Below, in pieces: positions 1,580-47,833 of a stretch of 52,738 nt of DNA. Each line of letters starts with the position of its first letter. Within the stretch, counting starts at the first letter, position 1. Source of the DNA: a virus (taxonomy: Duplodnaviria > Caudoviricetes); IMG/VR virus record IMGVR_UViG_3300047550_006202, positions 1 to 52,738 of that record; one strand, 5' to 3'. The position numbers and the translations under genes are program-made. The notes beneath the pieces are model-generated. The model worked only from the letters and a program-made list of their open reading frames with translations, was not told the DNA's origin and did no database searches.

Positions 1580-2098
1580 TCACTTCAGTAACCCGTATAA
1601 CGTATCTATGGACCCGGAATTGTGATACTCTGGGTTAGACGGGTGCAGTTCTGGGTTTGCTTTAACGTCCCTCTTAAAGAACCTTCCTGCTATGGAATCG
1701 TTGTAGGCGTCGGTGTGTAGCACTTCCAACTTGAACTGCCAGTATTCTTCGTAGTAGGTCAATTGTTTCTTGGTGAAACACACCTCGAGTACCTCCTTGG
1801 TGAAGTGTTTCTGGCCCAGGGATTCTATGTCCCTAAGCAGCGGCACGTTGCTGCCGTTGTACTCGAGCCAATTGCTCTCTTTGACCACCTTCTTTTTCTT
1901 GGGTACCCGACCGGGTTTTTCCCACTCGGAGATCTCCTTTTTCGTGAGCTTCTTCGTGAGCCTGTTCTGTAGCGATTTTTTCCCTATGTATATCCTTCCG
2001 TTGGTTGTGTTCGTGATCATGTACACGAAACCGACTGCTTTATCTGGGAATTGGGATACGTCTGTTATTTCTTTACCTTTGTATAACCATTTGTTCAT
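1580..2098 (-). CDS. GIY-YIG family nuclease (Seg-like)
   Basis: GFVYMITNTTNGRIYIGKK (GIY-YIG variant), later YYEE and YND, matching the conserved E and N positions. Confidence 0.8.
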   Translation of the reverse strand: MNKWLYKGKEITDVSQFPDKAVGFVYMITNTTNGRIYIGKKSLQNRLTKKLTKKEISEWEKPGRVPKKKKVVKESNWLEYNGSNVPLLRDIESLGQKHFTKEVLEVCFTKKQLTYYEEYWQFKLEVLHTDAYNDSIAGRFFKRDVKANPELHPSNPEYHNSGSIDTLYGLLK

Positions 2099-2105
2099 GC
2101 GTTAC

Positions 2106-2804
2106 TTATTTAGTCATTAACTTGTTTAAGAGTTCTATGTGTCCCATACCTATGAAGAAGACACCGGTTTTGAATTTCTTTAGGAGTTTATTGTCTCTGT
2201 CAGAGTTGGCTTCGAAAGCCATCTCGAAAGCTGGACCGTTACCGTCTGGCCAATTGTCCCACATGTCCGATTCAACAGACTCTATGAAAGATGCTACGTT
2301 ATCGTCGGTCGCTTCCGCTTGAGAATCTTTGTAGTAATCCCTTCCCAACTTAGAGAAGAATTTGTTCATGAGGTCCTCGAACTCCTCTTTCGATTTATCC
2401 CTTATCGCCTCGTGCGCCCACTGCTTCCTGGAATTGAGCGCCTTTTCGAACACAGTCTTTCCTTTGACCGATGATACCTTTTGCACCGTGCTGTTCTCTG
2501 CTGTGTTGGAGAAGAGCGTGAATACGTATACGTACTCGTTCTTGATCTTCTCTGAGGATATCTCTTCGTCCCAGCTCCCTTCGTATTCTATGTCTCCGAA
2601 TAGCGGTTTCACGACTTCTTTGTCTCCGCCTCCGCCTTCGTACCAGTAACCGTACTTATCGCCGATCTTCTTTATCTTCTCGACTACATCTTTAGCAAGC
2701 GCGGGTTTTTTACCGTGTTCTAAACCGACAAAAGCACGAGACGCGTCGATGATGTAGGAATCGGTGACCTCCGCCTCCAGTAATATGTTCATTAGACTTA
2801 TCAC
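2106..2804 (-). CDS. Hypothetical protein, possible EreA/ChaN/Tiki(TraB)-fold; probable head protein
   Basis: Likely start is GTG at 2804 (MISLMNILLE), just downstream of the minus-strand ATATTTAT at 2809-2816. Motifs FVGLEH, WYEG, RD and FIGMGH. Confidence 0.65.
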   Translation of the reverse strand: MISLMNILLEAEVTDSYIIDASRAFVGLEHGKKPALAKDVVEKIKKIGDKYGYWYEGGGGDKEVVKPLFGDIEYEGSWDEEISSEKIKNEYVYVFTLFSNTAENSTVQKVSSVKGKTVFEKALNSRKQWAHEAIRDKSKEEFEDLMNKFFSKLGRDYYKDSQAEATDDNVASFIESVESDMWDNWPDGNGPAFEMAFEANSDRDNKLLKKFKTGVFFIGMGHIELLNKLMTK

Positions 2805-2815
2805 AGGTATAAATA

Positions 2816-3100
2816 TCAGCTGTCCCACTTGACCACGAAGGTCACATCAGTATTCGAAGGAATTGGATGAGGTGAGGATAGCTTACCGACCACAAGTAAT
2901 TCATTCGCTTCGTTGTATAGACCAATAGCCGTAGCGTAAGGTCTGAAATCCGATCCCGTAACGGCATCGATGTAAGATCCAGTTTCATCTGCTTTTGTAG
3001 CGCTGTTGTTTAGTGTGTAATTGAAATCGTTCTCGTAGACTCTGCACCTCACGATGTTTTCGTAAACTGTCGTCTCTGCTTGAAATGTTATGAATGCCAT
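2816..3100 (-). CDS. Baseplate/tail structural protein; stand-alone domain paralogous to the C-terminus of 10704..11744
   Basis: PYATAIGLYNEANELLVVGKLSSP matches TYITTVGMYNDNNDLLAVAKLSKP, and NDFNYT matches NEFNYT. Confidence 0.8.
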   Translation of the reverse strand: MAFITFQAETTVYENIVRCRVYENDFNYTLNNSATKADETGSYIDAVTGSDFRPYATAIGLYNEANELLVVGKLSSPHPIPSNTDVTFVVKWDS

Positions 3101-3123
3101 GTCAGTGCTTTTTTATAAATATA

Positions 3124-4446
3124 CTATCCACGGTATTCAGGATCACATCCCGAGTTGTAATCCGGGAATACGCCTGTACTAGTTAGATCGTTAACTGTAA
3201 ATATCTTGTATTGTTGTAAGTATTCCGGGTCTCCGCTTATATTATTACCCGTTACTCTATAATAGTGTTGACCGTCGGTAATTATCTCTCCTCCAACGAC
3301 ATTTCCGCCACCAAAACTATTGGCTGTTCTAAAAGGAATTGCACCTGTGACTTTCAATACACCGGCGTATTTTGTATACGGCGTAGTTCCTATGAAATAC
3401 CTTTCGTCGCCGCACTGCACTAACGCATAGTAATCGAATCCTGGAACGTTGGAAAGATACGTACTGTATCTAGTTGAACCAAGATACGTTTTGTCTACCG
3501 AATAAACCCAGTTTGGTCTATACCCGCCGATGTCTCTGACGTACAAATACGGGAAATCGTAAGTCGACGGGTTCGCTGAATACGTGCTATACCACGAATA
3601 ATCATCTTGGTCGTTGGTCATTCCAGGAATAGGTGCCTTGAATAGAAACTCTCCGTTTGATATGTATCCCAATCTGTTGTATCCAATTATGTTGGATTGA
3701 GTCATGCTCGCTACTTCCTCTATGCTGTTTCCCCCGATCAAATACATCGGTTTGTTTATCAAGAATGTACTTACTGTAGGGGTAGGGGTAGGAGTTGGGC
3801 TTCTAGTAACAGAAGGAGTTATCGTTGGAGTTCTAGAGATAGTGACTGTTATTGTCGGTGTAACTGGATTCGGTGTCATTGTCACCGTAGGGGTCACTGA
3901 TATGGTGGGAGTCACGCTTATTGTTTCAGTGGGTGTAGGAGTTAAACTCACTGTAGGGGTGACGCTTATTGTCGGACTAACTGTGACAGTTATGCTTGGA
4001 GTCTTAGAAGGAGTTCTTGAAACGGATACAGTTGGGGTAGTAGTAACCTCGGGAGTTCTACTTATTGATATGGTAGGCGTGAAAGTGACAGTGGGAGTCA
4101 CCGTGATGGTACTGCTAGGCGTTATGGTTACGGTAGGAGTTACCGTTATGGTAACGCTTATAGTAGGTGTTACAGGAGGATAACCAACCAAATAAGCGTC
4201 CGTCCAACTTACGCAGTCCGTACACTCCGTCTTTATTCTGACTATGGTGGTTCCGAATGGGACTATGTGGCTAGTGTATCCCGCTTCCAATTCTGCACGA
4301 CTCACACACTTCTGAAAAGGTTCTTTGAAATCGTCAGCGTCCGTATAGAGGTCGAAAGGCCCTCTCGGTCCTCTCGCGTCTCCAACGTAATCACCGAACG
4401 AAGCGACTATTTTTACTGAGTAGTTTGTGAATACTGAGAATGGCAT
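3124..4446 (-). CDS. Thr/Pro/Ser-repeat virion protein (fibre/appendage-like) 1
   Basis: N-terminal GPFDLYTD...AGY...VPFGT domain, central TPT[IV]S[VI] repeats, and a C-terminal aromatic-rich globular domain. Confidence 0.8.
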   Translation of the reverse strand: MPFSVFTNYSVKIVASFGDYVGDARGPRGPFDLYTDADDFKEPFQKCVSRAELEAGYTSHIVPFGTTIVRIKTECTDCVSWTDAYLVGYPPVTPTISVTITVTPTVTITPSSTITVTPTVTFTPTISISRTPEVTTTPTVSVSRTPSKTPSITVTVSPTISVTPTVSLTPTPTETISVTPTISVTPTVTMTPNPVTPTITVTISRTPTITPSVTRSPTPTPTPTVSTFLINKPMYLIGGNSIEEVASMTQSNIIGYNRLGYISNGEFLFKAPIPGMTNDQDDYSWYSTYSANPSTYDFPYLYVRDIGGYRPNWVYSVDKTYLGSTRYSTYLSNVPGFDYYALVQCGDERYFIGTTPYTKYAGVLKVTGAIPFRTANSFGGGNVVGGEIITDGQHYYRVTGNNISGDPEYLQQYKIFTVNDLTSTGVFPDYNSGCDPEYRG

Positions 4447-4459
4447 ATCTTTCTATTTT

Positions 4460-5404
4460 TTAGCAACACGTTCCACTATAAGTATTGGAGAACGTAATTG
4501 TCACGTCAGTGTCTCCGTAAGCTATTTGACTTATGTTATCAGTCACCTTCAATCTATATACAGCTGATCTAACACCTGGAGGAGTGGGATCACAATCTAC
4601 ACTAAGAATTGTTTGGAATCTTGTGCTATTGTTCGTAAACTGCAAAGGTTCTATATTTGTATCTCCGCTTACATATTCCCAAAGATACGTATAAGGTGCG
4701 TATCCGCCCGCAGCTGTTCCAGTAACGGCCTGCGTATCCGCGGGTGTACACGTACTACACAGACTACAACTGCTTGATCTAGACGATGCATCCATAGTTA
4801 GAGTGAGAGGCGGAGCAGTCGTTTGGCTAGGTGTTACTGATATCGTCTTTGTAGGAGTTATTGATATAGTAGGAGTTTGACTTATTGATATAGTCGGTGT
4901 CACAGATATAGTTTTAGTCACCGTAATAGTCGGAGTAACTGTGATTGTGGGAGTTATTGATATGCTGGGAGTAACAGATATTGTTTTAGTGAATGTGACG
5001 CTTATGGTAGGAGTTACGGAAATCGTTGGAGTTTGTGTCAACGAGATCGTAGGCGTAACGCTTATAGACGCTGTCCTACTTATAGTAGGAGTAGCTGTAA
5101 TGGATATCGTAGGAGTTATGCTCTTAGTAACTGTTATAGTAGGCGTAGGAGTCGCAGTAGGTGTCGGACTGGGTTGTACCACGTAAATGTTTGCGCAGTT
5201 TCTACAAGTTCCTTTGGAACACACCCTCAAACTGTTCGTGCCAGAGGGAACGAAGTTCAAAGTGTAACCAGAAAGGAGCTGATTCTTAGTAACGTCTGTA
5301 GCAAGAGGCGTACAAAATCCATCGAAATCCGTATAGATATCGAAGTAGTTACCGGTATCAGCTCCGGCGGTTGTGATCGTTATTAGTACGGATACTGTTG
5401 ACAT
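4460..5404 (-). CDS. Thr/Pro/Ser-repeat virion protein 2
   Basis: Same N-domain (FDIYTD...SGY...VPSGT), TPTIS repeats, and a C-terminal Ig/PKD-like GGYAPYTYLW...YRLKVTD domain. Confidence 0.8.
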   Translation of the reverse strand: MSTVSVLITITTAGADTGNYFDIYTDFDGFCTPLATDVTKNQLLSGYTLNFVPSGTNSLRVCSKGTCRNCANIYVVQPSPTPTATPTPTITVTKSITPTISITATPTISRTASISVTPTISLTQTPTISVTPTISVTFTKTISVTPSISITPTITVTPTITVTKTISVTPTISISQTPTISITPTKTISVTPSQTTAPPLTLTMDASSRSSSCSLCSTCTPADTQAVTGTAAGGYAPYTYLWEYVSGDTNIEPLQFTNNSTRFQTILSVDCDPTPPGVRSAVYRLKVTDNISQIAYGDTDVTITFSNTYSGTCC

Positions 5405-5443
5405 CTATTTATAAATACGTAATTTTTCATTTCAAAACTATAA

Positions 5444-8400
5444 TTAAATTTTTATACAAGCATTGGCGTTACAGTCTGCCACGTTATACACGGTTCCTAT
5501 GTTCGCTGGTGAAGTCGTTGTAGTGGTGCTAGTTATAGTGTAACATTCTAAACTGTTGTTAGGTACTCCAGTTGGATCAGAGAGCGTGTATACGCCTCCA
5601 ACGGTTAAGGAACTATCTGTTATCCATGTTGATGTTGTACCGTCGCTACATTTTGATACATCATAAGAGTTTCTAAATGGAAGCGTTCTCGTCGGAGATT
5701 TAGTGGGAGTTAACGTAGGAGTTCTTGTGAAAGTGATGGTAGGAGTGGGCGTCACACTTATAGTAGGAGTCACTGTAATGCTTATTGTCGGCGTGACACT
5801 TATTGTAAGCGTTTTAGTTAAACTTATTGTTGGCGTAACGCTTATAGATGCAGTCCTACTTATAGTAGGTGTAACTGTAATCGATATCGTAGGAGTAGCA
5901 GTGATACTTATCGTAGGAGTTTTAGTTATAGACGGGGTTGGAGTTGGAGGTATGTTACAACCCGTGCTTATAACAACAGTTACAGTGGTCTGGCCTATTA
6001 CGAATGTGCTTCCGTTGACGTAAGAACTTCCGTTAACTGTGACTTGATTTACCTTCGAGTAACCGTAAGAGGTTCCCACAGAACAGCCTGTTCCCACAGT
6101 ATCTCCGTTTACAAACTTAGCTCCGCTTTGTCCAGGCGTCCATACAATTCCGCCCCCTGCTCCCTGACCGGCTTGTGTATTGTCTCCGCCTAAGCAATTA
6201 CAGATATCAGTATCTGTTCCTCCAACCCAAACTGTTGCGTAAGATCCTGATACACTTATTTGTTCGCTAAGGGGATCAGACAGCGTCCACGTAAATCTTC
6301 CAGTGCCTCTGTTATAAGAAGTGTATGTTAAAGTAGCGTTATCCACATAATCAGACGTACTCGGTGTGACGGTGACAGTGATAGTGGGAGTAAGCGTAGG
6401 TGTTACACTTATTGTTGGAGTGAGCGTAGGAGTTCTAGTCGGTGTAGGAGTAGGAGCCAATACGCAGGCTGTGTTAATAGAAACTGTTACAGTCGACTGT
6501 CCATCTTGGGTTACCCAACTCTGACCGTTTGATTTCACGTCTCCAGTGGTTGATCCGTGATTTATGGTCATAGAATTATCCTTTGAATGAGCGTAAAGAT
6601 CGCTTATTCCAAGACCCACTGCGCTCTTTGTACCGGCCTCTCCAGATAACCACGTTACGGTAGATAGTATGTAAGATCCGCCTGCTGCGTTAACGCAACT
6701 ATTATCGCTGTAGCTAGTAATAGATGCGAAAGTTATCGTGATATCTTCCCCTACAGCTGAGCTGAGGTTGAAGTAGAACGTATCGTTTAGATTATTGAAA
6801 GACGCAAACGATAGTACTGCGTCCGTCGCGAAATCCGTAGGAGACGGTGTTGGACTTATAGATATTGTAGGAGTTACGGTTTGAGTCAGACTTATAGTTT
6901 TTGTAGGCGTTATACTAATGGTCGGAGTGACACTTATTGTCGGCGTTAAGCTTATCGTAGGAGTTAAGCTTATTGTTTGAGTTAAACTAATAGTAGGGGT
7001 TACTGAGATAGTAGGCGTTAGACTCTTGGTTTGAGTCAAACTTATTGTCGGGGTCAAACTCATCGTCTGAGTGAGACTTATGGTAGGTGTCAAACTTATT
7101 GTCGGGGTCAAACTCATGGTAGGTGTCAAACTCATAGTCTGAGTGAGACTTATGGTAGGTGTCAAACTCACTGTTTGAGTTAGACTTATTGTCGGAGTTT
7201 GAGTTATGCTTATCGTTGGAGTTAAACTAATAGTCTGTGTTACGCTAATCGTAGGCGTTACGCTAATTGTGGGAGTGAGACTGATTGTGACGCTTATCGT
7301 AGGTGTGACACTTATCGTAGGTGTGACGCTTATGGATTTAGTAACACTTATAGTTGGCGTTACAGTAATAGTAGGCGTCAAACTAACTGTAGGCGTCAAA
7401 CTAATTGTTTGAGTTAAGCTTATCGTAGGAGTCAAGCTTATTGTGGGAGTAAGACTTATAGTCTGAGTTACGCTAATCGTAGGAGTAGCGGTTATGCTTA
7501 TAGTTTTAGTAGGAGTGATGCTTATAGTAGGAGTAACTGTGATCGTTGGAGTCAAACTAACTGTAGGCGTCAAACTTATAGTCTTTGTGACGCTTATAGT
7601 AGGAGTTACGCTAATCGTAGGAGTAACAGTGATTGTCGCTGTGACAGTTATGGTTGGCGTTAAACTCTTTGTAGGAGTTTGACTTATCGTAGACGTTACG
7701 CTTATGGTTGGAGTAGCTGTGAGGCTTATTGTCGGAGTGAGACTCTTTGTGGGAGTCAAGCTTATGGTTGGAGTTACGCTTATAGTCGGCGTTACACTTA
7801 TAGTAGGAGTGACGCTGATTGTGGCAGTAACAGTTATAGTGGGAGTCAAGCTCTTTGTCGGCGTTACACTTATAGTGGCCGTTACCGATATCGTAGGAGT
7901 TCCTGTAATGCTGATGGTCGGAGTAACAGTAATAGTGGGCGTAACGCTGATTGTCTGTGTTAAGCTTATTGTAGGGGTCAAACTCTTTGTCGGTGTTAAG
8001 CTTATTGTAGGAGTTATGCTTATAGAAGCAGTTACACTTATACCGGGAGTTACGCTTATGCTTTGAGTCAGACTTATGGTCGGTGTTAAGCTTATTGTAG
8101 GAGTTAAGCTTACAGTTTTTGTTACGGTTATCGTAGGAGTGACTGTGATAGTAGGCGTCAAGCTCTTTGTGGGAGTTTGACTTATCGTTGGACTAACGCT
8201 TATAGTTGGCGTTTGAGATATCGTTGGAGTAACTGATATCGTCGAGGTGACAGTTATGGTCGGAGTTACTGTTATAGTCGGGGTGCTAGTTAACCCAGGA
8301 GTGCTGCTTATTGTAGCTGTTACGCTTATTGTCTGTGTTACACTAATTGTGGGAGTTGCTGTAACTGTGGGAGTTTGAGTGGGAGTTACAGATATCGTAG

Positions 8401-8884
8401 GTGTGTTCGTTACGGTCGGAGTTACAGATATGGTCTCTGTAACGGTGATTGTGGGAGTAGCCGTTATAGAAACCGTTGGAGTGGATGTTACACTTATAGT
8501 AGGAGTAGAAGTTATTGTGATTGTTGGGGTTTTTGTAGCAGTTAAACTAACAGTGGGAGTGTTCGTTATAGTGGGAGTGATACTGATCGTAGGCGTCTTT
8601 GTTATTGACACAGTTGGGGTGTACGAAGGCGTTGTTCCAACGAATCTAGTTACAATGTCTATGTAATTCGTACAACCGTCGCAGTGAGCAGCAACGCGCA
8701 AAATACCCGTGTTAGCGGGAACTTTATTGAACCTATAACCATCTATGAGAAGTTGTCTGGGAATCTTTCTATAGATCGGATATTTAAATCCATCCCAGTC
8801 GCTGAATATATCGCAGTACTCAGAGTCTATCCCTATTCCTGAGAATGATACTGTTACCGATATATATTTTATTTCGTTTCTCAT
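5444..8884 (-). CDS. Long Thr/Pro/Ser hexapeptide-repeat virion protein 3 (1146 aa)
   Basis: Same N-domain (CDIFSD...DGY...VPANT), roughly 590 aa of T-x-T-I-[ST]-[VLI] repeats, two duplicated globular domains and a Cys-rich tail. Confidence 0.85.
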   Translation of the reverse strand: MRNEIKYISVTVSFSGIGIDSEYCDIFSDWDGFKYPIYRKIPRQLLIDGYRFNKVPANTGILRVAAHCDGCTNYIDIVTRFVGTTPSYTPTVSITKTPTISITPTITNTPTVSLTATKTPTITITSTPTISVTSTPTVSITATPTITVTETISVTPTVTNTPTISVTPTQTPTVTATPTISVTQTISVTATISSTPGLTSTPTITVTPTITVTSTISVTPTISQTPTISVSPTISQTPTKSLTPTITVTPTITVTKTVSLTPTISLTPTISLTQSISVTPGISVTASISITPTISLTPTKSLTPTISLTQTISVTPTITVTPTISITGTPTISVTATISVTPTKSLTPTITVTATISVTPTISVTPTISVTPTISLTPTKSLTPTISLTATPTISVTSTISQTPTKSLTPTITVTATITVTPTISVTPTISVTKTISLTPTVSLTPTITVTPTISITPTKTISITATPTISVTQTISLTPTISLTPTISLTQTISLTPTVSLTPTITVTPTISVTKSISVTPTISVTPTISVTISLTPTISVTPTISVTQTISLTPTISITQTPTISLTQTVSLTPTISLTQTMSLTPTMSLTPTISLTPTISLTQTMSLTPTISLTQTKSLTPTISVTPTISLTQTISLTPTISLTPTISVTPTISITPTKTISLTQTVTPTISISPTPSPTDFATDAVLSFASFNNLNDTFYFNLSSAVGEDITITFASITSYSDNSCVNAAGGSYILSTVTWLSGEAGTKSAVGLGISDLYAHSKDNSMTINHGSTTGDVKSNGQSWVTQDGQSTVTVSINTACVLAPTPTPTRTPTLTPTISVTPTLTPTITVTVTPSTSDYVDNATLTYTSYNRGTGRFTWTLSDPLSEQISVSGSYATVWVGGTDTDICNCLGGDNTQAGQGAGGGIVWTPGQSGAKFVNGDTVGTGCSVGTSYGYSKVNQVTVNGSSYVNGSTFVIGQTTVTVVISTGCNIPPTPTPSITKTPTISITATPTISITVTPTISRTASISVTPTISLTKTLTISVTPTISITVTPTISVTPTPTITFTRTPTLTPTKSPTRTLPFRNSYDVSKCSDGTTSTWITDSSLTVGGVYTLSDPTGVPNNSLECYTITSTTTTTSPANIGTVYNVADCNANACIKI
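6840..8630 (-). repeat. Degenerate, mostly 18-bp coding tandem repeat array (TPTISV-type hexapeptide)
   Basis: Continuous repeats such as CTTATAGTAGGAGTTACG with synonymous variation; exact 29-32 bp duplicates spaced 54 and 72 bp apart near 7035-7168. Confidence 0.9.
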
Positions 8885-8888
8885 TTAT

Positions 8889-10700
8889 TTATACCCCACA
8901 AGCTGTTGAGGATGTTTGTTGAACGAATCCGCTGATGTTGGCCACGCTTCCGGCTTTAGCACAGAAAGTCTGTTGCGGGTATATGGTGCTATTGGTCACT
9001 TGGATACCGCTACAGTTCGTATAATTTACAATCGCGTTTCCACTAAAGCTAGTGTTTTTGTATTCCGCGCAGTGGAGTTTTGTTTTATAATACACTGTGA
9101 AATTACCGTTTACGCCTGTCCAAGTATAACTAGAAACACCTGTACCGACTGATGCGTAATAGGTACTAGAATTATAAATTATGTAAGCAGACGATATCAA
9201 ACAACCTACTTGAACCTGTAGATATACATCTGCGTTTATCGTTGCTCCGGTTGGAGTTTGCCCGTATTCGTAACAGGTCAAAGGGGAACCAGCGCAATTG
9301 TTCATCGGATGATTATCGTTGAACAAAGTGATGTACCCTGATCCAGCGGAACCTGCGTTGTTCTTTATTCTCAGAGTCACAAACTTATCCGCTGATGGAG
9401 TGGAACTATTATCTCTTCCTAAGGCCCATCGATTATTTGGCGTAACTGTGATACTCGGTGTACTTGTGGGTGTTAGACTTATCGTAACGGTGGGAGTGAT
9501 CGATATGCTTATAGTAGGAGTCATCGATATGGTATTAGTTACAGTTGGCGTAATTGTGGCCGAAGGTGTCTGAGTCAGGAACGGTGTTAGTGTGGGCGTA
9601 GGAGTTTGAGTGATTGGAGGGGTCTCTGTTGGTGTTACGCTCACTGTCGGTGTTACGCTTATGGTAGCGGTTACGTTCGGAGTTTTTGTGGGAGTTCTAG
9701 TGACGCTCGCAGTCGGGGTGACGGTGGGAGTATTTGATATTGTGACCGTTATCGACGGAGTTACGGCTGGCACCACTCTAGCGTTTCCAGCCAATGCGCA
9801 ATCGTTATAATACGCAGATCCCGTTATCCTACAATCGTTTACAATCGCTATGGGATTTTCAAAACTTTCCTCTATGTAATCGTTTACTGTTATCTTACAA
9901 AGCGCTGGATCGCTCTTTAAACCGCATCCAGGACCGTAATAATTGCTTACGCTATAGTAAGTAGAGTATTCTCCTGGATCTATGGCGTTGAGCGTAACTA
10001 GACCCGTCGATTTGTTAACTTGGAAGAGGTGTGATTGCTCTGTTCCAAAAACTTGCAATGTGTTATAATCGAATTCTCCTGATCCTGCGTAATCGTTGCT
10101 AGTTACGTAGAACGTTTTTGGTGATGTGAGTTCTGAGAATTCGTTACTGTAACCCTTTAATATGGGTCTTTCAGGGAAAATATCTTGATAGTCTTGGTGT
10201 GTTAGTACAACTACACCGTGAGAGTACATTATGTTTCCAACGTGAAGATTATCGTTAGCAGAGTCTACTATATTTCCGTTTCCGTCGTCAGATAAAAAAG
10301 CTCCGTTATCAGAGTAAACGAAGGTGTTTGGGGATATTTTTTCTCCGAACACTGTTCTTGGAATGGACATCACCGATATCCTTGAATTAGATTCGGTTGG
10401 AAAATATCTATTCTCGTATTCGTAAGTGCCTGATGCCGCTGTAGATTGTTGGTAGGAATCCCACGCGCTTCCAGAACCCAATATGGATCCTGAGATGTGG
10501 TTCATGTAGTAAAGTTGGCGTATCGTTCTGTAAACTAGTATCTGATAGTTAACAGATCCCGATACGCTTACTTGACCGTTTACGCCCTTAGTATACTCAA
10601 TGTTTTTTTCTCCTCCACAACTAAGTTGTTGGGAATACTTGAGTTGTATCGGAATGCTTGATATGTCCGAACTTTGTATTGTATTCCTGCATAGACTCAT
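8889..10700 (-). CDS. Baseplate/tail protein N-domain fused to Ig-like and TPT-repeat regions (repeat protein 4)
   Basis: The first ~170 aa are paralogous to the N-part of 10704..11744 (SIPRTVFGEKISPNTF; GNIMYSHGVVVLT), followed by beta-rich domains, TPT repeats and a Cys-rich end. Confidence 0.8.
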   Translation of the reverse strand: MSLCRNTIQSSDISSIPIQLKYSQQLSCGGEKNIEYTKGVNGQVSVSGSVNYQILVYRTIRQLYYMNHISGSILGSGSAWDSYQQSTAASGTYEYENRYFPTESNSRISVMSIPRTVFGEKISPNTFVYSDNGAFLSDDGNGNIVDSANDNLHVGNIMYSHGVVVLTHQDYQDIFPERPILKGYSNEFSELTSPKTFYVTSNDYAGSGEFDYNTLQVFGTEQSHLFQVNKSTGLVTLNAIDPGEYSTYYSVSNYYGPGCGLKSDPALCKITVNDYIEESFENPIAIVNDCRITGSAYYNDCALAGNARVVPAVTPSITVTISNTPTVTPTASVTRTPTKTPNVTATISVTPTVSVTPTETPPITQTPTPTLTPFLTQTPSATITPTVTNTISMTPTISISITPTVTISLTPTSTPSITVTPNNRWALGRDNSSTPSADKFVTLRIKNNAGSAGSGYITLFNDNHPMNNCAGSPLTCYEYGQTPTGATINADVYLQVQVGCLISSAYIIYNSSTYYASVGTGVSSYTWTGVNGNFTVYYKTKLHCAEYKNTSFSGNAIVNYTNCSGIQVTNSTIYPQQTFCAKAGSVANISGFVQQTSSTACGV

Positions 10701-10703
10701 TTG

Positions 10704-11744
10704 TTACCAATCTAATTTGGTCCTGATCAATGCTTCTTTTGTGAAATCTTTTACAAGTGGCTTAGAAAGCTTTGCTACCGCCAACAAATCGTTGTTATCG
10801 TTGTACATTCCTACGGTTGTTATATATGTCTGGGGATTGTTTATGAAGTTGTCGTATATCAATTCTCCAGAAGCCGTTATGAATGAAGGATTAGAAGTAT
10901 AATTAAATTCGTTGTTTCTAACTCTAACGAACACATAATTCGATGAAACAGTTTCTTTAGACTGCAATTGGAAATAGTTTCCGTTGTCTATGAAATCGTA
11001 TATGGCTGCGTTGTTTTTGCCCTGGTTATCTGTGTCAGTTCCTGTGTAGAACGAATGCCCCAATCCACCGTCGGAAGTACTTAGGGAGATTGCAGAAGCA
11101 TTCAACAGTATTAACCCGATATCGGGTAAGAAAAGACCATAAGATCCTGAAACGGTGTATCCGCTTTCTTGCCAATCTACGTTCGCTGAGCCGTTAGATC
11201 CGTAAACTATATCGAACGCTCTACCGCAATCTAAATAAGTGATTGTGGTCACATCGTTAGAATTGTCAGTTAGATTTAGATAATTGGATCCGCTAGCCAA
11301 TACGAGATTAAAAGACCCTGGCATCAGGCTCTCTTTGTACCTGTTTCTGTCTATGGGTATGGCTATTATGGATTCTGCTTCAGCTCCTACTCCCCCGAAG
11401 TTAAATCTTCCTCCTGATATGGTGCCTCGTCCCTCGGAATCTCCGTATATTAAATTTCTGTATTGTCCGTAAGTTATCCTTGTGGGACTTATTCCAGCTA
11501 TCAGGGGATTCAATGGAGCTGATCCAGAACCCGCGTAGTGTCCGTATGCTATGGAAAATTGAACCGAAGCGTTGGTACTTGAACAAGGAGCATTGTATAC
11601 ATCCAAATAATAGCTACTCGTAGTATAACAGGTTGATCCTGTGTAAAAAACGGTAAGCGTCGGAGAGTTTGTACTCCATGCGGGAGATGTTACGGCGTCT
11701 GCCGATATCACGAAATCCTGCGATTCTAATGCTTTAAATGACAT
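10704..11744 (-). CDS. Baseplate/tail structural protein
   Basis: Lies in the baseplate cluster; C-terminal TTVGMYNDNNDLLAVAKLSKP motif resembles tail-fibre attachment/collar domains. Confidence 0.8.
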   Translation of the reverse strand: MSFKALESQDFVISADAVTSPAWSTNSPTLTVFYTGSTCYTTSSYYLDVYNAPCSSTNASVQFSIAYGHYAGSGSAPLNPLIAGISPTRITYGQYRNLIYGDSEGRGTISGGRFNFGGVGAEAESIIAIPIDRNRYKESLMPGSFNLVLASGSNYLNLTDNSNDVTTITYLDCGRAFDIVYGSNGSANVDWQESGYTVSGSYGLFLPDIGLILLNASAISLSTSDGGLGHSFYTGTDTDNQGKNNAAIYDFIDNGNYFQLQSKETVSSNYVFVRVRNNEFNYTSNPSFITASGELIYDNFINNPQTYITTVGMYNDNNDLLAVAKLSKPLVKDFTKEALIRTKLDW

Positions 11745-12415: not shown

Positions 12416-12464
12416 GGTTTATTTGTTTTTAATAAATATAATGTCCCTGAGAAATGTTTCGAAT

Positions 12465-18148: not shown

Positions 18149-18748
18149 TTAGGATATGTCTTTTGATTCTATCAATGTGTAAGTAAACGAGCTACCATGA
18201 ATAGCGGCGGCCTTTCTGCATACATCCATAAAGGCTTCAAAATCTACAGCCTTTTTAAATACTTGGCATCCTTCCGACCAATTCTCCACAAGAGTGCTAT
18301 CCACACCAGCTTTATGAATGTTGATTCCAAAAATCCCTTCTTGAATCTTATTTTCGTCATACACTAAATCTTTGTTTGGATCTCTGTATACTTTTACGGG
18401 TTTTTGTTGTCTCAATGCTTCGTATTTTCCTTTGTGAAGACCTATGGCGTGAGATCCCTTATATTGGCCGGGAACCAATCTTGCAACGCCCGCTGGGTTT
18501 CCGAACTCTAAAACACCTTTTCTTCCAGGGTCGGTTGTGTTTTGCCACTCTTTATAGATCCATTTTCCATCCTGTTTATAGGATACAGAGATGAGATCGT
18601 CGAAAGCGTTTGTCACCTTCTTACCGGTATCAGAGTTTCTAATTCCCACTATGTTAAGATCGAAGCCCTTGTTAGCTGCGTCTTCAAACCATACGTAACC
18701 TTTGGCTTTCACTGCCTTTTCGATTTTTTCTTTGCTGTACTTTGCCAT
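18149..18748 (-). CDS. Putative peptidoglycan L,D-peptidase (YkuD-like), candidate endolysin or virion lysin
   Basis: GINIHKA...NWSEGCQV fits the H-x(n)-S-x-G-C catalytic motif of L,D-transpeptidase folds. Confidence 0.65.
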   Translation of the reverse strand: MAKYSKEKIEKAVKAKGYVWFEDAANKGFDLNIVGIRNSDTGKKVTNAFDDLISVSYKQDGKWIYKEWQNTTDPGRKGVLEFGNPAGVARLVPGQYKGSHAIGLHKGKYEALRQQKPVKVYRDPNKDLVYDENKIQEGIFGINIHKAGVDSTLVENWSEGCQVFKKAVDFEAFMDVCRKAAAIHGSSFTYTLIESKDIS

Positions 18749-18766: not shown

Positions 18767-20623
18767 TTATTGAAACGCGACAACTCTTCCCTGTATGTCT
18801 GTGTTGGGATACTTAAGTTCGAATATCGACGGATCCAATGAAGGATAAATTACGTTGTTTATAGTTGCTCCTTTTATATCGTAAGCATATATGGAATATC
18901 CGCTTTCTTGGCCGTATTTGTTCACTATTTCAACCTTTTTTACAGTCTGAACACCGTCTTGCATGTCTATCAGAGAGTAAATGTTTGATAGTATGATTGG
19001 CTCATTTATTTGCCAATTCGATGTATTGAAGTACTCTTTTAATGCCGTTATGCATCTAGAAACCACTTCTTGAGCATTATAATTAGGCCTAGTTATTATA
19101 TCAAAATTGCATCCTATATTGATGATGTAAGCAGATTTAAGATCTATGACATCAGTCAACATCCTATATTCAGACAGATGCGTGGTTAAATTATATAATA
19201 GTGCTCTACTGGGATAAGCCAAATTTCCTGAGGAGTCGTAGGATAACACATACATAGATATTTGAGTTGGATTCATTATAGACGGGCTAGTGTCTCTATA
19301 ATTAAAGAAGGTTCTAGAATCCCTAGTTATGAAAGCCTTAGATATAGCTCCAAATTTTGGAGACATATTTAATGCTTTTTCTAAATAATCTTGCTGAGTT
19401 ACGGCTCTCATTTGACTTGAAAATGCATTTCGTATGTTCTGTCTAAGTTGTTCGTTATTGTCACCATCCCCACCCCCAGAAGCTGGTTGGGGATTTGTTA
19501 TTGCTAATGTATTTGAATTGGTGGTATTTCCCGTTATTGAGTATTGAGATATATTTGTTATCTCTCCGCTTCTCGCGTTGTATTCAGCTCCTCCCCCAGC
19601 TAAATAAGTGATTGTTAAAGTTGTATTATAAGGAGCCAATCCATAAGTAGTTGTTGTTACAAAATTCGTGGGATCAAAAGCGGTGTTTATGGTACTAGAT
19701 CCCGTGGTCAATCCAATCCCTATTGTAGAAGGATTTGGAATTACTGCCGTATCAGCTATAGTATTTATACCAGGTCCAAATTCCAAAGTTACGCTGCTAT
19801 CGCTATTTATTCGGCTAGTAAATCTTCTATCTACTTTAATTTTCTCTAATATATAAGGGACTTGATTAGCGTCTTGATATAATTCGGGGTATTCTTGAGC
19901 GGTATTAGAGACAGGATTATATATGTAGTCTTGCGCTAAATAAGGAACCTCTGACCATTTATTACCAGAAGAATCGACTACACTTATTATAGATACTATT
20001 TCAGAATCATTTATCTTTACAGTTGAAAATCTTTGCGCTGGTCCAAACGAATATGTTGTAGTTTTTATTACTCCTGAAGTGGCGGTCGCATTCTTCTTTA
20101 GTATATAACTCACCGGTGCACCAGATCCGTCTGTTTCATATATACTGACTGTTGTGGGATCCATGGAAGAAGAGTGTGTAAAATCTATCTTATTTCCTAC
20201 ATAGTATGTTAGACTTGGGGAAACTCTAGAACTTACAACCATTCCGGGATTTACAATAAATGCGTAAGAAAAGTCAGGATATCTTAATCCAGAGAGCGTT
20301 ATTGCTGGGACTACTTGATAAACTTCGAGATCTACAACGGCTGAGGACACTAGTTTTGGTCTATAGCCCAACATGTGGGCCATTGCATATAAATTATTTT
20401 TTTGTTTTGCGTATTGAAGAAAATTTTCCTGTATTTGATTATCGAGATAAAACGATAAGACGTCTCCTACATAAGAAGCCATATCGATAAATAAAGTTCC
20501 TGGAGAAGCTTTAGAAAAATCTGTATATACGGTAGGAAAATAAGCTTTCGCGTACTCGATTAAATCGTTTTTAAATGTCGAAAATTCTTTATTTAAGTAT
20601 TTTATGTCTACATTATTTTCCAT
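18767..20623 (-). CDS. gp6: Baseplate wedge subunit (T4 gp6 / baseplate-J family)
   Basis: DFSKASPG...YVGDVLSFYLD...A...LGY near the N-terminus; GGGDGD...RAVTQQDY in the J-like C-part. Confidence 0.9.
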   Translation of the reverse strand: MENNVDIKYLNKEFSTFKNDLIEYAKAYFPTVYTDFSKASPGTLFIDMASYVGDVLSFYLDNQIQENFLQYAKQKNNLYAMAHMLGYRPKLVSSAVVDLEVYQVVPAITLSGLRYPDFSYAFIVNPGMVVSSRVSPSLTYYVGNKIDFTHSSSMDPTTVSIYETDGSGAPVSYILKKNATATSGVIKTTTYSFGPAQRFSTVKINDSEIVSIISVVDSSGNKWSEVPYLAQDYIYNPVSNTAQEYPELYQDANQVPYILEKIKVDRRFTSRINSDSSVTLEFGPGINTIADTAVIPNPSTIGIGLTTGSSTINTAFDPTNFVTTTTYGLAPYNTTLTITYLAGGGAEYNARSGEITNISQYSITGNTTNSNTLAITNPQPASGGGDGDNNEQLRQNIRNAFSSQMRAVTQQDYLEKALNMSPKFGAISKAFITRDSRTFFNYRDTSPSIMNPTQISMYVLSYDSSGNLAYPSRALLYNLTTHLSEYRMLTDVIDLKSAYIINIGCNFDIITRPNYNAQEVVSRCITALKEYFNTSNWQINEPIILSNIYSLIDMQDGVQTVKKVEIVNKYGQESGYSIYAYDIKGATINNVIYPSLDPSIFELKYPNTDIQGRVVAFQ

Positions 20624-20625
20624 CT

Positions 20626-21039
20626 TTACGCATTTTGTATTGTTATAGATACATCATCTGATTCGTTAGAAGCTTTTATGACATAACTAAACTCTATAAG
20701 TATAGAATTTTGATCCATTGCGTTATATATAGATAAATCTATTACGTTAATTTGTGGAAAATTGCTTGATATTTTTTCAGTCAATTGATCTTCTAATTCC
20801 TGAGTATTTTTTGTGTTTATTTGTTCAAATAATGAAGCTCTCAAATTAGCGCCGAAATTAGGATCAAATAAACGTTCTCTATTATTTGTCAATAGATAAT
20901 TCATTATATTGTACCTAATCTGATCTTTTGTGGTATAGACACTCAAAAAAACACTGGGATATGAAAATGGTATTTTAACGCCCAATGCCACAGATTTCTT
21001 TAAATCTATTGGCGATATTTGTCTAAGTCCGTAAGCCAT
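20626..21039 (-). CDS. gp25: Baseplate wedge subunit, gp25/GPW family
   Basis: NIMNYLLTNNRERLFDPNFGANLRASLFE matches LLT..GER...P.FG; immediately upstream of gp6. Confidence 0.9.
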   Translation of the reverse strand: MAYGLRQISPIDLKKSVALGVKIPFSYPSVFLSVYTTKDQIRYNIMNYLLTNNRERLFDPNFGANLRASLFEQINTKNTQELEDQLTEKISSNFPQINVIDLSIYNAMDQNSILIEFSYVIKASNESDDVSITIQNA

Positions 21040-21479: not shown

Positions 21480-21526
21480 ATTGATAAATATCGGGTGTTC
21501 AATTTATTTATTTGTGACTTGGTTTC

Positions 21527-25882: not shown

Positions 25883-25890
25883 ATAAATAT
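25883..25890 (-). promoter_or_regulatory. Putative late promoter ATATTTAT (representative - strand copy)
   Basis: Same motif on the minus strand at 2809, 3115, 12432, 21484, 28414 and variant GTATTTAT at 5411; all but 28414 lie just upstream of a minus-strand start. Confidence 0.7.
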
Positions 25891-32552: not shown

Positions 32553-32560
32553 ATATTTAT
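32553..32560 (+). promoter_or_regulatory. Putative late promoter ATATTTAT (representative + strand copy)
   Basis: Same motif at 1072, 1184, 35770, 41432, 45738, 47822 and 51132, each upstream of a + strand start. Confidence 0.7.
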
Positions 32561-35769: not shown

Positions 35770-35791
35770 ATATTTATAAGAAAAAATCAGT

Positions 35792-45729: not shown

Positions 45730-45762
45730 ATATCTGTATATTTATAGCTAGATCATAACGAA

Positions 45763-47818: not shown

Positions 47819-47833
47819 CTGATATTTATTAGT

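Follow-up and report, generated by a model that had tools for sequence, protein, structure and literature searches.

The DNA analysed here (referred to as the window) comprises all 52,738 bp of the IMG/VR virus record IMGVR_UViG_3300047550_006202 and is a fragment of a large freshwater contractile-tailed phage with an estimated completeness of ~32%, and the DNA runs containing it are freshwater metagenomes. On its minus strand, a gene of a putative baseplate module was found to be cut into two open reading frames (ORFs), the first of which (P0002, 603 aa; 8889..10700) carries the N-half in its residues 1–176 (10173..10700), while the second (P0003; 2816..3100) is a free 94-aa ORF that corresponds to the C-half. 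Immediately upstream of P0002 and on the same strand lies the intact paralog P0001 (346 aa; 10704..11744), which served as the one-piece reference member of the module. An initial annotation of the window had located these three ORFs correctly and had explained them by gene fission of a baseplate paralog, a proposal borne out by the finding that both halves tile a profile of one-piece relatives and that 66 of the 139 viral loci related to it carry the gene in fused form. The split form is genuine, old, and subject to purifying selection, and the content between its halves differs widely in related phages. We further consider it likely that both halves are functional and rejoin in the virion.

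Both Halves Match One-Piece Relatives and Abut at a Loop

The profile of the one-piece form was built from 33 fused proteins, each of at most 400 aa, and comprises 285 positions. Residues 32–169 of P0002 matched profile positions 33–182 (E 1.6e-22) and residues 4–93 of P0003 matched positions 196–284 (E 3.6e-37), so that the halves abut with ~13 positions between them, as had been proposed, and together cover the whole one-piece length. Since the same profile also matched P0001 (residues 117–345 on positions 102–284; E 1.7e-21), the split family is a paralog of P0001. In the window, 7,072 nt lie between the end of the N-half (nt 10173) and the ATG of the C-half (nt 3100), and this stretch is rich in Thr-Pro repeats with an 18-nt period. 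The relatives of P0003 are C-domains of the module family and no others; P0003 matched no family in Pfam or the PHROGs, and neither P0002 nor P0003 matched a Pfam family at E <= 0.1.

Direct comparison with P0001 reproduced the annotated alignment of its C-terminal part with the 94-aa ORF, both via BLASTP (P0001 aa 257–329 vs. P0003 aa 3–77; E 4e-12, 39% identity) and via profile–profile comparison (E 4.1e-20, probability 99.3%, 88 columns). For the N-terminal part, pairwise BLASTP of P0001 against P0002 was not significant (E 0.82); profile–profile comparison recovered the first of the two annotated motif pairs (P0001 124–161 vs. P0002 106–139; E 6.3e-5, probability just 64.5%), a match that becomes strong through the one-piece relatives. 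The second annotated pairing (YGLFLPDIGLILLN vs. VGNIMYSHGVVVLT) was not recovered by hmmalign, although it fits the order of elements in the AlphaFold2 models of P0001 and of the fused protein P0127, both of which have a hairpin directly before the junction.

Genomes in which the halves form one ORF were found, and both halves align with these proteins end to end. Examples are L020, L021, and L026 (302–305 aa), P0127 (280 aa), and gp105 of Flavobacterium phage vB_FspM_immuto (357 aa), which covers the whole profile (E 4.5e-98). In a large protein collection, 73 longer relatives of P0003 were retrieved at E 0.001, mostly of 266–300 aa, and one-piece relatives were up to 78–80% identical to P0003. 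Alignment of the halves with P0127, P0128, P0131, and L020 showed the cut site to be a variable loop of 15–25 aa in the fused forms, bounded by ...GVVIFT and the strand ...TFQAESTIYEN. The homology of P0002 to one-piece proteins stops at ...GVVVLTHQDYQDIF, and P0003 joins the alignment at its third residue. At L113, a bare N-half of 201 aa stops at the same residue position and is followed by a 469-aa gene and then a C-half of 124 aa. P0001 carries ~40 extra, partly helical residues at the split-site loop.

In-frame domain inserts (~180–420 aa) are tolerated at two other loops of the module. One follows the first strand (profile 33/44) and is occupied in L024 (663 aa; 1604–3595). The other precedes the last hairpin of the N-half (profile ~158/159) and is occupied in L034 (584 aa; 8528–10282), L038 (735 aa; 1961–4168), the N-half of L006 (2567–4132), and a 592-aa protein of Microcystis phage Mel-JY01 (L002 21024–22799). 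The in-frame insert of the latter protein (~260 aa) had been considered as a candidate for insertion at the split site itself, which was rejected when profile mapping placed it at 157/159. The split site (profile 183–196) is a third insertion-tolerant loop, and the module fold seems to be a general display scaffold.

Two further observations concern the one-piece loci. In Mel-JY01 (L002 13853–22799), five consecutive genes (358, 353, 955, 719, and 592 aa) share a common C-domain of ~90 aa at their end; similarity to P0001 extends over most of its length in four of them (E 8e-31 to 9e-44), and in two of these genes the P0001-like match is the C-end of a much longer protein. For L078/L079, an intron in the fused gene was considered since the tblastn match spans 1105 nt for a 280-aa query, but the ORF is contiguous (10266..11108); in our reading, the excess span stems from the C-domain of the upstream paralog being joined to the match.

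The Split Form Is Widespread and Under Purifying Selection

Viral contigs were scanned first with P0003 (73 loci) and then with the fused P0127. Sorting by profile yielded 139 viral loci, of which 61 are split, 66 are one-piece, and 12 are unclear or cut by the contig end; these loci are not independent, several being near-copies recovered from separate metagenomes and L005 and L103 representing a single contig. The N-half ORF accompanies the C-half in every split locus long enough to show both. At E 0.001, 218 stand-alone homologs of the C-half were found in the 51–165 aa length class, and the 119 among the matches listed (besides the query) measure 91–133 aa and are 67–81% identical to P0003. 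An alignment of 37 C-halves contains 17 invariant columns, and nearly all of the aligned ORFs open with a Met (in a column that is >=90% conserved) followed by a short variable lead-in.

The arrangement of the window recurs in the independent metagenome contigs L005 and L102, where an N-half ORF of 593–594 aa is followed by three fibre-like ORFs and a C-half of 94–95 aa. IMG/VR contains complete contigs (~180 kb) of both the split L005 type and the fused P0127 type. Between the window and these contigs, dN/dS amounted to 0.10–0.18 for the C-half and 0.15–0.17 for the N-half (more distant pairs being saturated at synonymous sites), with protein identities of 79% and 62–76%, respectively.

Two trees bear on the history of the split. 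The first, a quick maximum likelihood tree of P0001 orthologs, comprises 44 rows (13 split and 31 fused) after exclusion of an additional paralog copy found in L077. A single clade of 16 (SH-aLRT 91) contains every split row plus three fused ones (L020, L021, and L024), all outer clades are fused, and at least two state changes are needed. The second tree was built from the last 92 residues of 241 proteins (133 split, 108 fused) and has 16 changes in its best form, of which at least four are forced by well-supported branches; this tree has few columns, includes the 119 listed of the 218 near-length matches, and drops near-length proteins >135 aa and longer ones <240 aa. The split condition is thus derived, with several switches of state, which could stem either from recurrent cutting and rejoining or from phages exchanging the entire locus.

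The Halves Are Predicted to Reassemble

Co-folding of P0002 residues 1–180 with P0003, each supplied as an alignment, yielded a median score of 0.68 vs. 0.00 for the best of three controls. The mark applied was reached by 58 of 80 solved complexes and by 2 of 110 mismatched pairs, counts that are rough since custom alignments were used here. The runs agreed in at least 86% of contacts with a partner pLDDT of at least 62, and the confident contacts joined residues 1–22 of the C-half to residues 12–29, 111–132, and 175–176 of the N-half, thus placing the first long strand of the C-half against the N-terminal and central strands of the N-half. The AlphaFold2 model of the fused P0127 (pLDDT 77.8) has matching strands at 13–27 and 189–207 and a junction loop at 169–188, and the co-fold puts the C-half where the fused protein has it. 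The prediction therefore supports binding of the halves by β-strand complementation; the annotated reassembly in trans gains from it the backing of a model.

In the explanation that we favour, a peripheral-baseplate module protein, paralogous to the product of the upstream gene, would have been severed in the surface loop that connects a β-hairpin to the long first strand of the C-terminal domain. The N-half (aa 1–176) would be translated first, with its ORF continuing into a Thr-Pro-linker arm and a terminal domain, while the C-half would be made separately as a 94-aa protein, from its own start and probably under its own late-promoter-like motif. The first long β-strand of the C-half would then dock on the N-terminal and central strands of the N-half and rebuild the one-piece fold in trans. 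The DNA between the halves would serve as a cargo slot, holding here the arm and three fibre-like proteins with a common N-terminal adaptor domain and, in relatives, other fibre-like genes, glycosyltransferase sets, or nothing.

Several points weigh against this explanation. The existence of fused forms that are so close to the split ones means that the split is not needed for the module to work, and the direct profile support for paralogy of the N-half and P0001 is modest. The co-fold may have passed on likeness to public one-piece sequences rather than on binding of these two chains, even though no solved complex resembles it, and the C-terminal domain is of low confidence in the monomer models (pLDDT 50–75). 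Foldseek searches of the PDB with the models of P0001 and fused P0127 gave 0 matches at E <= 0.001. Finally, no RNA runs were listed as containing the stretch of the window.

Other searches likewise returned no described fold: comparison of the profile with PDB sequences gave a best E of 0.63, BFVD yielded matches to uncharacterised viral proteins only, and P0001 (AlphaFold2 pLDDT 79) matched unnamed viral clusters only in the ESM Atlas. The modelled fold thus appears to resemble no solved structure, although a similarity could be masked where a protein that is probably oligomeric is modelled as a monomer.

The alternative that fares best, and which we regard as unlikely, is that the free C-half no longer rejoins the N-half and has a role of its own, e.g., in helping the fibre-like proteins encoded just upstream to assemble (as a chaperone) or to attach (as an adaptor). 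Functions of this kind are common among small genes that follow fibre genes, and the C-half is always located at the 3′ end of the cargo, where it is often coupled to the preceding ORF by gaps of 2–3 nt (L008, L014, L027). Its own promoter-like motif and its slightly better conservation relative to the N-half in L005/L102 also fit such a role. Against this, P0003 matches no chaperone family in Pfam or the PHROGs, and the C-half is kept where the cargo consists of glycosyltransferases only (L006, L099, L115) or is missing (L008, L116), which means that it does not track fibre genes. The presence of an N-half ORF in all split loci of sufficient length and the position of the C-half in the co-fold also speak against it.

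Rejoining of the halves before or during translation (i.e., by readthrough, frameshifting, RNA splicing, or protein trans-splicing) to give one mature chain appears highly improbable. It draws on the 3-nt ORF gap in L008–L011, L019, and L116, which in the L008 type amounts to one TAA and one sense codon in the same frame. The window, in contrast, has 5.8 kb and three complete ORFs between the halves, and P0006, the ORF directly upstream of P0003, is read in a different frame; neither P0002 nor P0003 matched an intein or Hint family, the N-piece continues into the Thr-Pro linker, and the conserved Met and variable lead-in of the C-half ORFs also argue against a single chain. Stop-codon reassignment was rejected as well, since all three stops end ORFs of the window (TAA 29, TGA 10, and TAG 5 of 44 ORFs counted), a usage that also counts against rejoining. 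Least credible of all is that the 94-aa ORF is a decaying remnant, left after a fibre cassette replaced the 3′ end of a gene whose N-half alone suffices: replacement of the C-terminus is the usual way in which tail-fibre genes evolve and most split loci carry a new C-terminal domain on the N-half ORF, but the low dN/dS of the C-half, its 218 intact stand-alone homologs and 17 invariant columns, the retention of the split across lineages whose P0001 orthologs are just ~52% identical, and the N-half of L113, which has no replacement domain, all argue against decay.

The DNA between the Halves Is a Variable Cargo Slot

In the window, the ORF of the N-half reads on into the intervening DNA. This extension of P0002 (aa 177–603; 8889..10172, minus strand) consists of a Thr-Pro-rich linker of ~130 aa and a Cys-rich C-terminal domain; its residues 350–563 match PHROG 15511 (function unknown; E 6e-8), and it is presumably a fibre or adhesin arm. 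The remaining cargo consists of three minus-strand ORFs, i.e., P0004 (1146 aa; 5444..8884), P0005 (314 aa; 4460..5404), and P0006 (440 aa; 3124..4446), which all begin with the same type of N-terminal domain (~75 aa, of no known family; pairwise E 1e-10 to 4e-14), continue into a stalk of Thr-Pro hexapeptides (18-nt period), and differ in their C-terminal domains. P0004 has very long TPTISV-type hexapeptide repeats with interspersed Cys-containing domains (PHROG 15511, E 4.7e-39; the repeats match this family, which has no known function), P0005 a Thr-Pro linker with a small C-terminal domain, and P0006 a Thr-Pro linker with a C-terminal domain of ~215 aa without a known family and without a usable ESM Atlas match. 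None of the three matched a Pfam family above threshold or a nuclease family; a PKD-like match of P0005 was weak and below threshold (E 0.055). Their make-up and position suggest that P0004–P0006 are fibres or adhesins, with the ~75-aa domain as a candidate common adaptor, and the cargo proteins may have a receptor-binding role. The ~75-aa domain also heads single fibre-like ORFs between the halves in L106–L109, L117, and L122.

Comparison with related phages showed that the distance separating the N-half ORF (at its stop codon) from the C-half (at its ATG) varies between 3 nt and >8 kb. At the short end, five assemblies (L008–L011 and L019) have no ORF between the halves, which are separated by 3 nt and read TAA AAT ATG in frame, and L116 likewise has a 3-nt gap and no ORF. 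At L106–L109, 985 nt hold one fibre-like ORF of 309 aa. One ORF is also found at L112–L114 and L119 (~1.45 kb; 469 aa in L113, the one locus inspected), where the bare N-half of 201–202 aa stops at the junction, and at L027–L032 (~1.7 kb; 570 aa in L027, the one locus inspected). Larger blocks comprise three ORFs at L014–L017 (2.4 kb), four at L115 (3.0 kb), and four at L006 (3.3 kb), two of which are glycosyltransferases (GT6, E 1e-17, and Fringe-like, E 8.9e-8). L102 and L005 (5.3–5.6 kb) resemble the window (5.8 kb) in having three fibre-like ORFs, and L099 has at least 8.4 kb with seven non-repeat ORFs upstream of the C-half that look enzyme-like by eye.

With regard to individual loci, the 463-aa N-half ORF and the C-half ORF of L008 (9930–10010) are in the same frame with only TAA AAT between them, identically in the five assemblies, and the end of the L008-type N-half ORF has a LamG-like look when its translation is inspected by eye. 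Enzyme-like gene sets in the place of fibres were observed at L006 (4153–7410), L014 (7636–9974), L099 (1569–9956), and L115 (11956–14901).

In the close one-piece genomes L081, L087, and L088, a SegE-like gene directly follows the fused gene, and in L079 one small ORF comes first; in none of the four was a fibre-like ORF found in the next 10 kb of the same strand. Since these genomes lack the fibre-like ORFs, the block is an insertion at the loop and not a rearrangement of genes that were always present. One pair of 21-nt direct repeats flanking the block (3188–3208 and 10167–10187; 76% identity) was considered as a sign of site-specific insertion, and was taken as a chance match because its copies are in different reading frames.

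These data refine the annotated view of the junction as an attachment and insertion point for a variable appendage cassette. Variable insertion stood up, and so did attachment insofar as the N-half ORF continues at the junction into a fibre-like extension; the cassette is fibre-like in the window, but some relatives have glycosyltransferases or nothing in its stead.

One tentative interpretation, to which we give less weight than to the reassembly itself, is that the halves act both as protein “bookends” and as DNA homology arms of a host-recognition island, whose cargo would be inherited and expressed together and exchanged en bloc through recombination within the conserved halves. If the fold survives a cut at one loop, whatever lies between the halves is embedded in a structural gene that is expressed late and is probably essential. 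The cargo could consist of fibres sharing an adaptor domain or of enzymes for the glycosylation of Thr-Pro stalks, and the SegE-like nuclease at the border would possibly help the swapping. Such a scheme, if true, would account for the alternation of split and one-piece forms in closely related phages.

A Promoter-Like Motif and a Nuclease Gene Lie Near the C-Half

The C-half has its own copy of the motif ATATTTAT, as annotated (3115..3122, minus strand; 15 nt before the ATG). This motif occurs 16 times in the window vs. 5.5 expected, a count reached in 0 of 100 shuffles, and an exact copy lies within 40 nt upstream of 5 of the 24 minus-strand ORF starts examined, with its first base 12–24 nt before the start codon. 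The other cassette ORFs are without an exact motif, P0005 having TATTTATA. Among 16 split loci inspected, 10 show a TATTTAT(A) core 2–6 nt before the ATG of the C-half, sometimes within the 3′ end of the ORF before it. With the T4 late promoter as a model, ATATTTAT is a candidate late-promoter-like element of this phage group. Its minus-strand sites include 2809–2816, 3115–3122, 12432–12439, 21484–21491, and 25883–25890, and its plus-strand sites 32553–32560, 35770–35777, 45738–45745, and 47822–47829, with several plus-strand copies located 4–22 nt before an ORF start.

Downstream of the C-half, and separated from it by one 240-aa ORF of unknown function, lies a gene for a SegE-like GIY-YIG endonuclease (1580..2098, minus strand; PF19835, E 1.7e-27). 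Where the flank measured 1.5 kb or more (9 further split loci and 11 fused ones being too short to judge), a relative of this gene was encoded on the same strand no more than 2.5 kb downstream at 47 of 52 split loci and at 39 of 55 fused ones. The gene is thus a downstream border of the variable locus and not specific to the split, and a role in cassette exchange would be speculative. Mel-JY01 likewise has an annotated GIY-YIG gene right after its fused gene, and L106 (11436–11687) has an 83-aa ORF with an HNH-like motif (by eye) between the C-half and the SegE-like gene.

Comparison with Known Systems

The closest described phenomenon is that of “genes in pieces”, i.e., gene fission with trans-assembly in large phages. 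In Aeromonas phage Aeh1, nrdA is cut into nrdA-a and nrdA-b by the endonuclease gene mobE, and the polypeptides are proposed to assemble without RNA or protein splicing (Crona et al. 2010, PMC3045599); mobile elements and fragmented phage genes are also the subject of PMC2988022 and PMC8351571. Both cases concern a large lytic phage in which a gene that is contiguous in relatives has been cut into two ORFs by inserted DNA. They differ in that nrdA encodes an enzyme whereas the window encodes a virion or baseplate-module protein, and in that the insert here is a variable fibre-like or glycosyltransferase block of 0 to >8 kb instead of a homing endonuclease gene (HEG). Also unlike Aeh1, the N-half ORF of the window extends into the cargo, the nuclease gene (SegE-like) is found beyond the C-half and not between the two pieces, and the split is widespread (61/139 loci), with at least four state changes on the C-domain tree. 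The HEG-bounded exchange regions of phages (Barth, Dunham and Seed 2023, PMC10448857) are similar in that a nuclease gene borders a block that varies between related phages, and differ in that here the SegE-like gene is near-constant beside both split and fused forms. A literature search for split baseplate or fibre genes returned nothing relevant, which is weak evidence that none is in print.

Among cultured phages, the closest relatives by protein are vB_FspM_immuto (50% identity to full-length P0001) and Mel-JY01 (36%), while megablast of 10 kb of the window against a phage collection gave no nucleotide match. Immuto (gp106/gp105; NC_055915) and Mel-JY01 (WWT39513–WWT39517) carry unsplit paralogs in the same gene order as the window, i.e., a gp6-like gene, several genes, a 219-aa gene, the P0001 ortholog, and the second paralog. 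In contrast to the split pair, their paralogs are each one ORF, all of them annotated as “hypothetical protein”, and the annotated tail fibre and tail spike genes of immuto come after the fused gene rather than inside it.

The position of the module after the wedge genes and before the fibres is that of the T4 peripheral baseplate proteins gp9, gp10, gp11, and gp12, which suggests a role in fibre attachment; however, among solved structures, including those of the T4 baseplate, the module proteins found no counterpart in either sequence or fold.

Splitting of phage genes with reassembly is known for a few enzymes, whereas here it would concern a virion-module protein that is split in about half of >100 related environmental phage loci, and whose halves bracket the most variable part of the tail module. 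If the halves reassemble, they would constitute a natural split-protein pair of unknown fold, with mapped loops that tolerate whole domains or genes and could be useful for engineering receptor-binding modules. They would then also provide a concrete model for the exchange of fibre and fibre-glycosylation cassettes in freshwater Flavobacterium-type phages.

Gene Row of the Window

The minus strand carries nearly all large ORFs from 1.5 to 28 kb. Upstream of P0001 on this strand are genes for a gp25-like wedge protein (20626..21039; PF04965, E 2.9e-9) and a gp6/Baseplate_J-like protein (18767..20623; PF04865, E 2.9e-8; PHROG 6, E 6.7e-25), followed by ORFs of 199, 366, 113, 1411, and 219 aa, and then by P0001, P0002, P0004, P0005, P0006, and P0003. 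The stop of P0001 is 4 nt from the start of the N-half ORF. The order is the same in related loci, with the second paralog directly downstream of the P0001 ortholog, and a P0001 ortholog precedes the split or fused gene in every related locus examined. It is this gene order, above all the gp25-like and gp6/J-like genes upstream, that points to the baseplate as the probable location of the split protein, and the “baseplate” label given in the initial annotation should be read in that sense.

Within the baseplate row, the 199-aa ORF (18149..18748, minus strand) yielded a match to PHROG 3000 (function unknown; E 5e-36) along with a weaker one to an endolysin PHROG (E 1.2e-10), and its product may be a tail-associated lysin. 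Finally, plus-strand GC skew is strongly positive (0.17–0.19) at 4000–10000, over the Thr-Pro repeat genes, because of the ACN/CCN codon bias of these minus-strand repeats.

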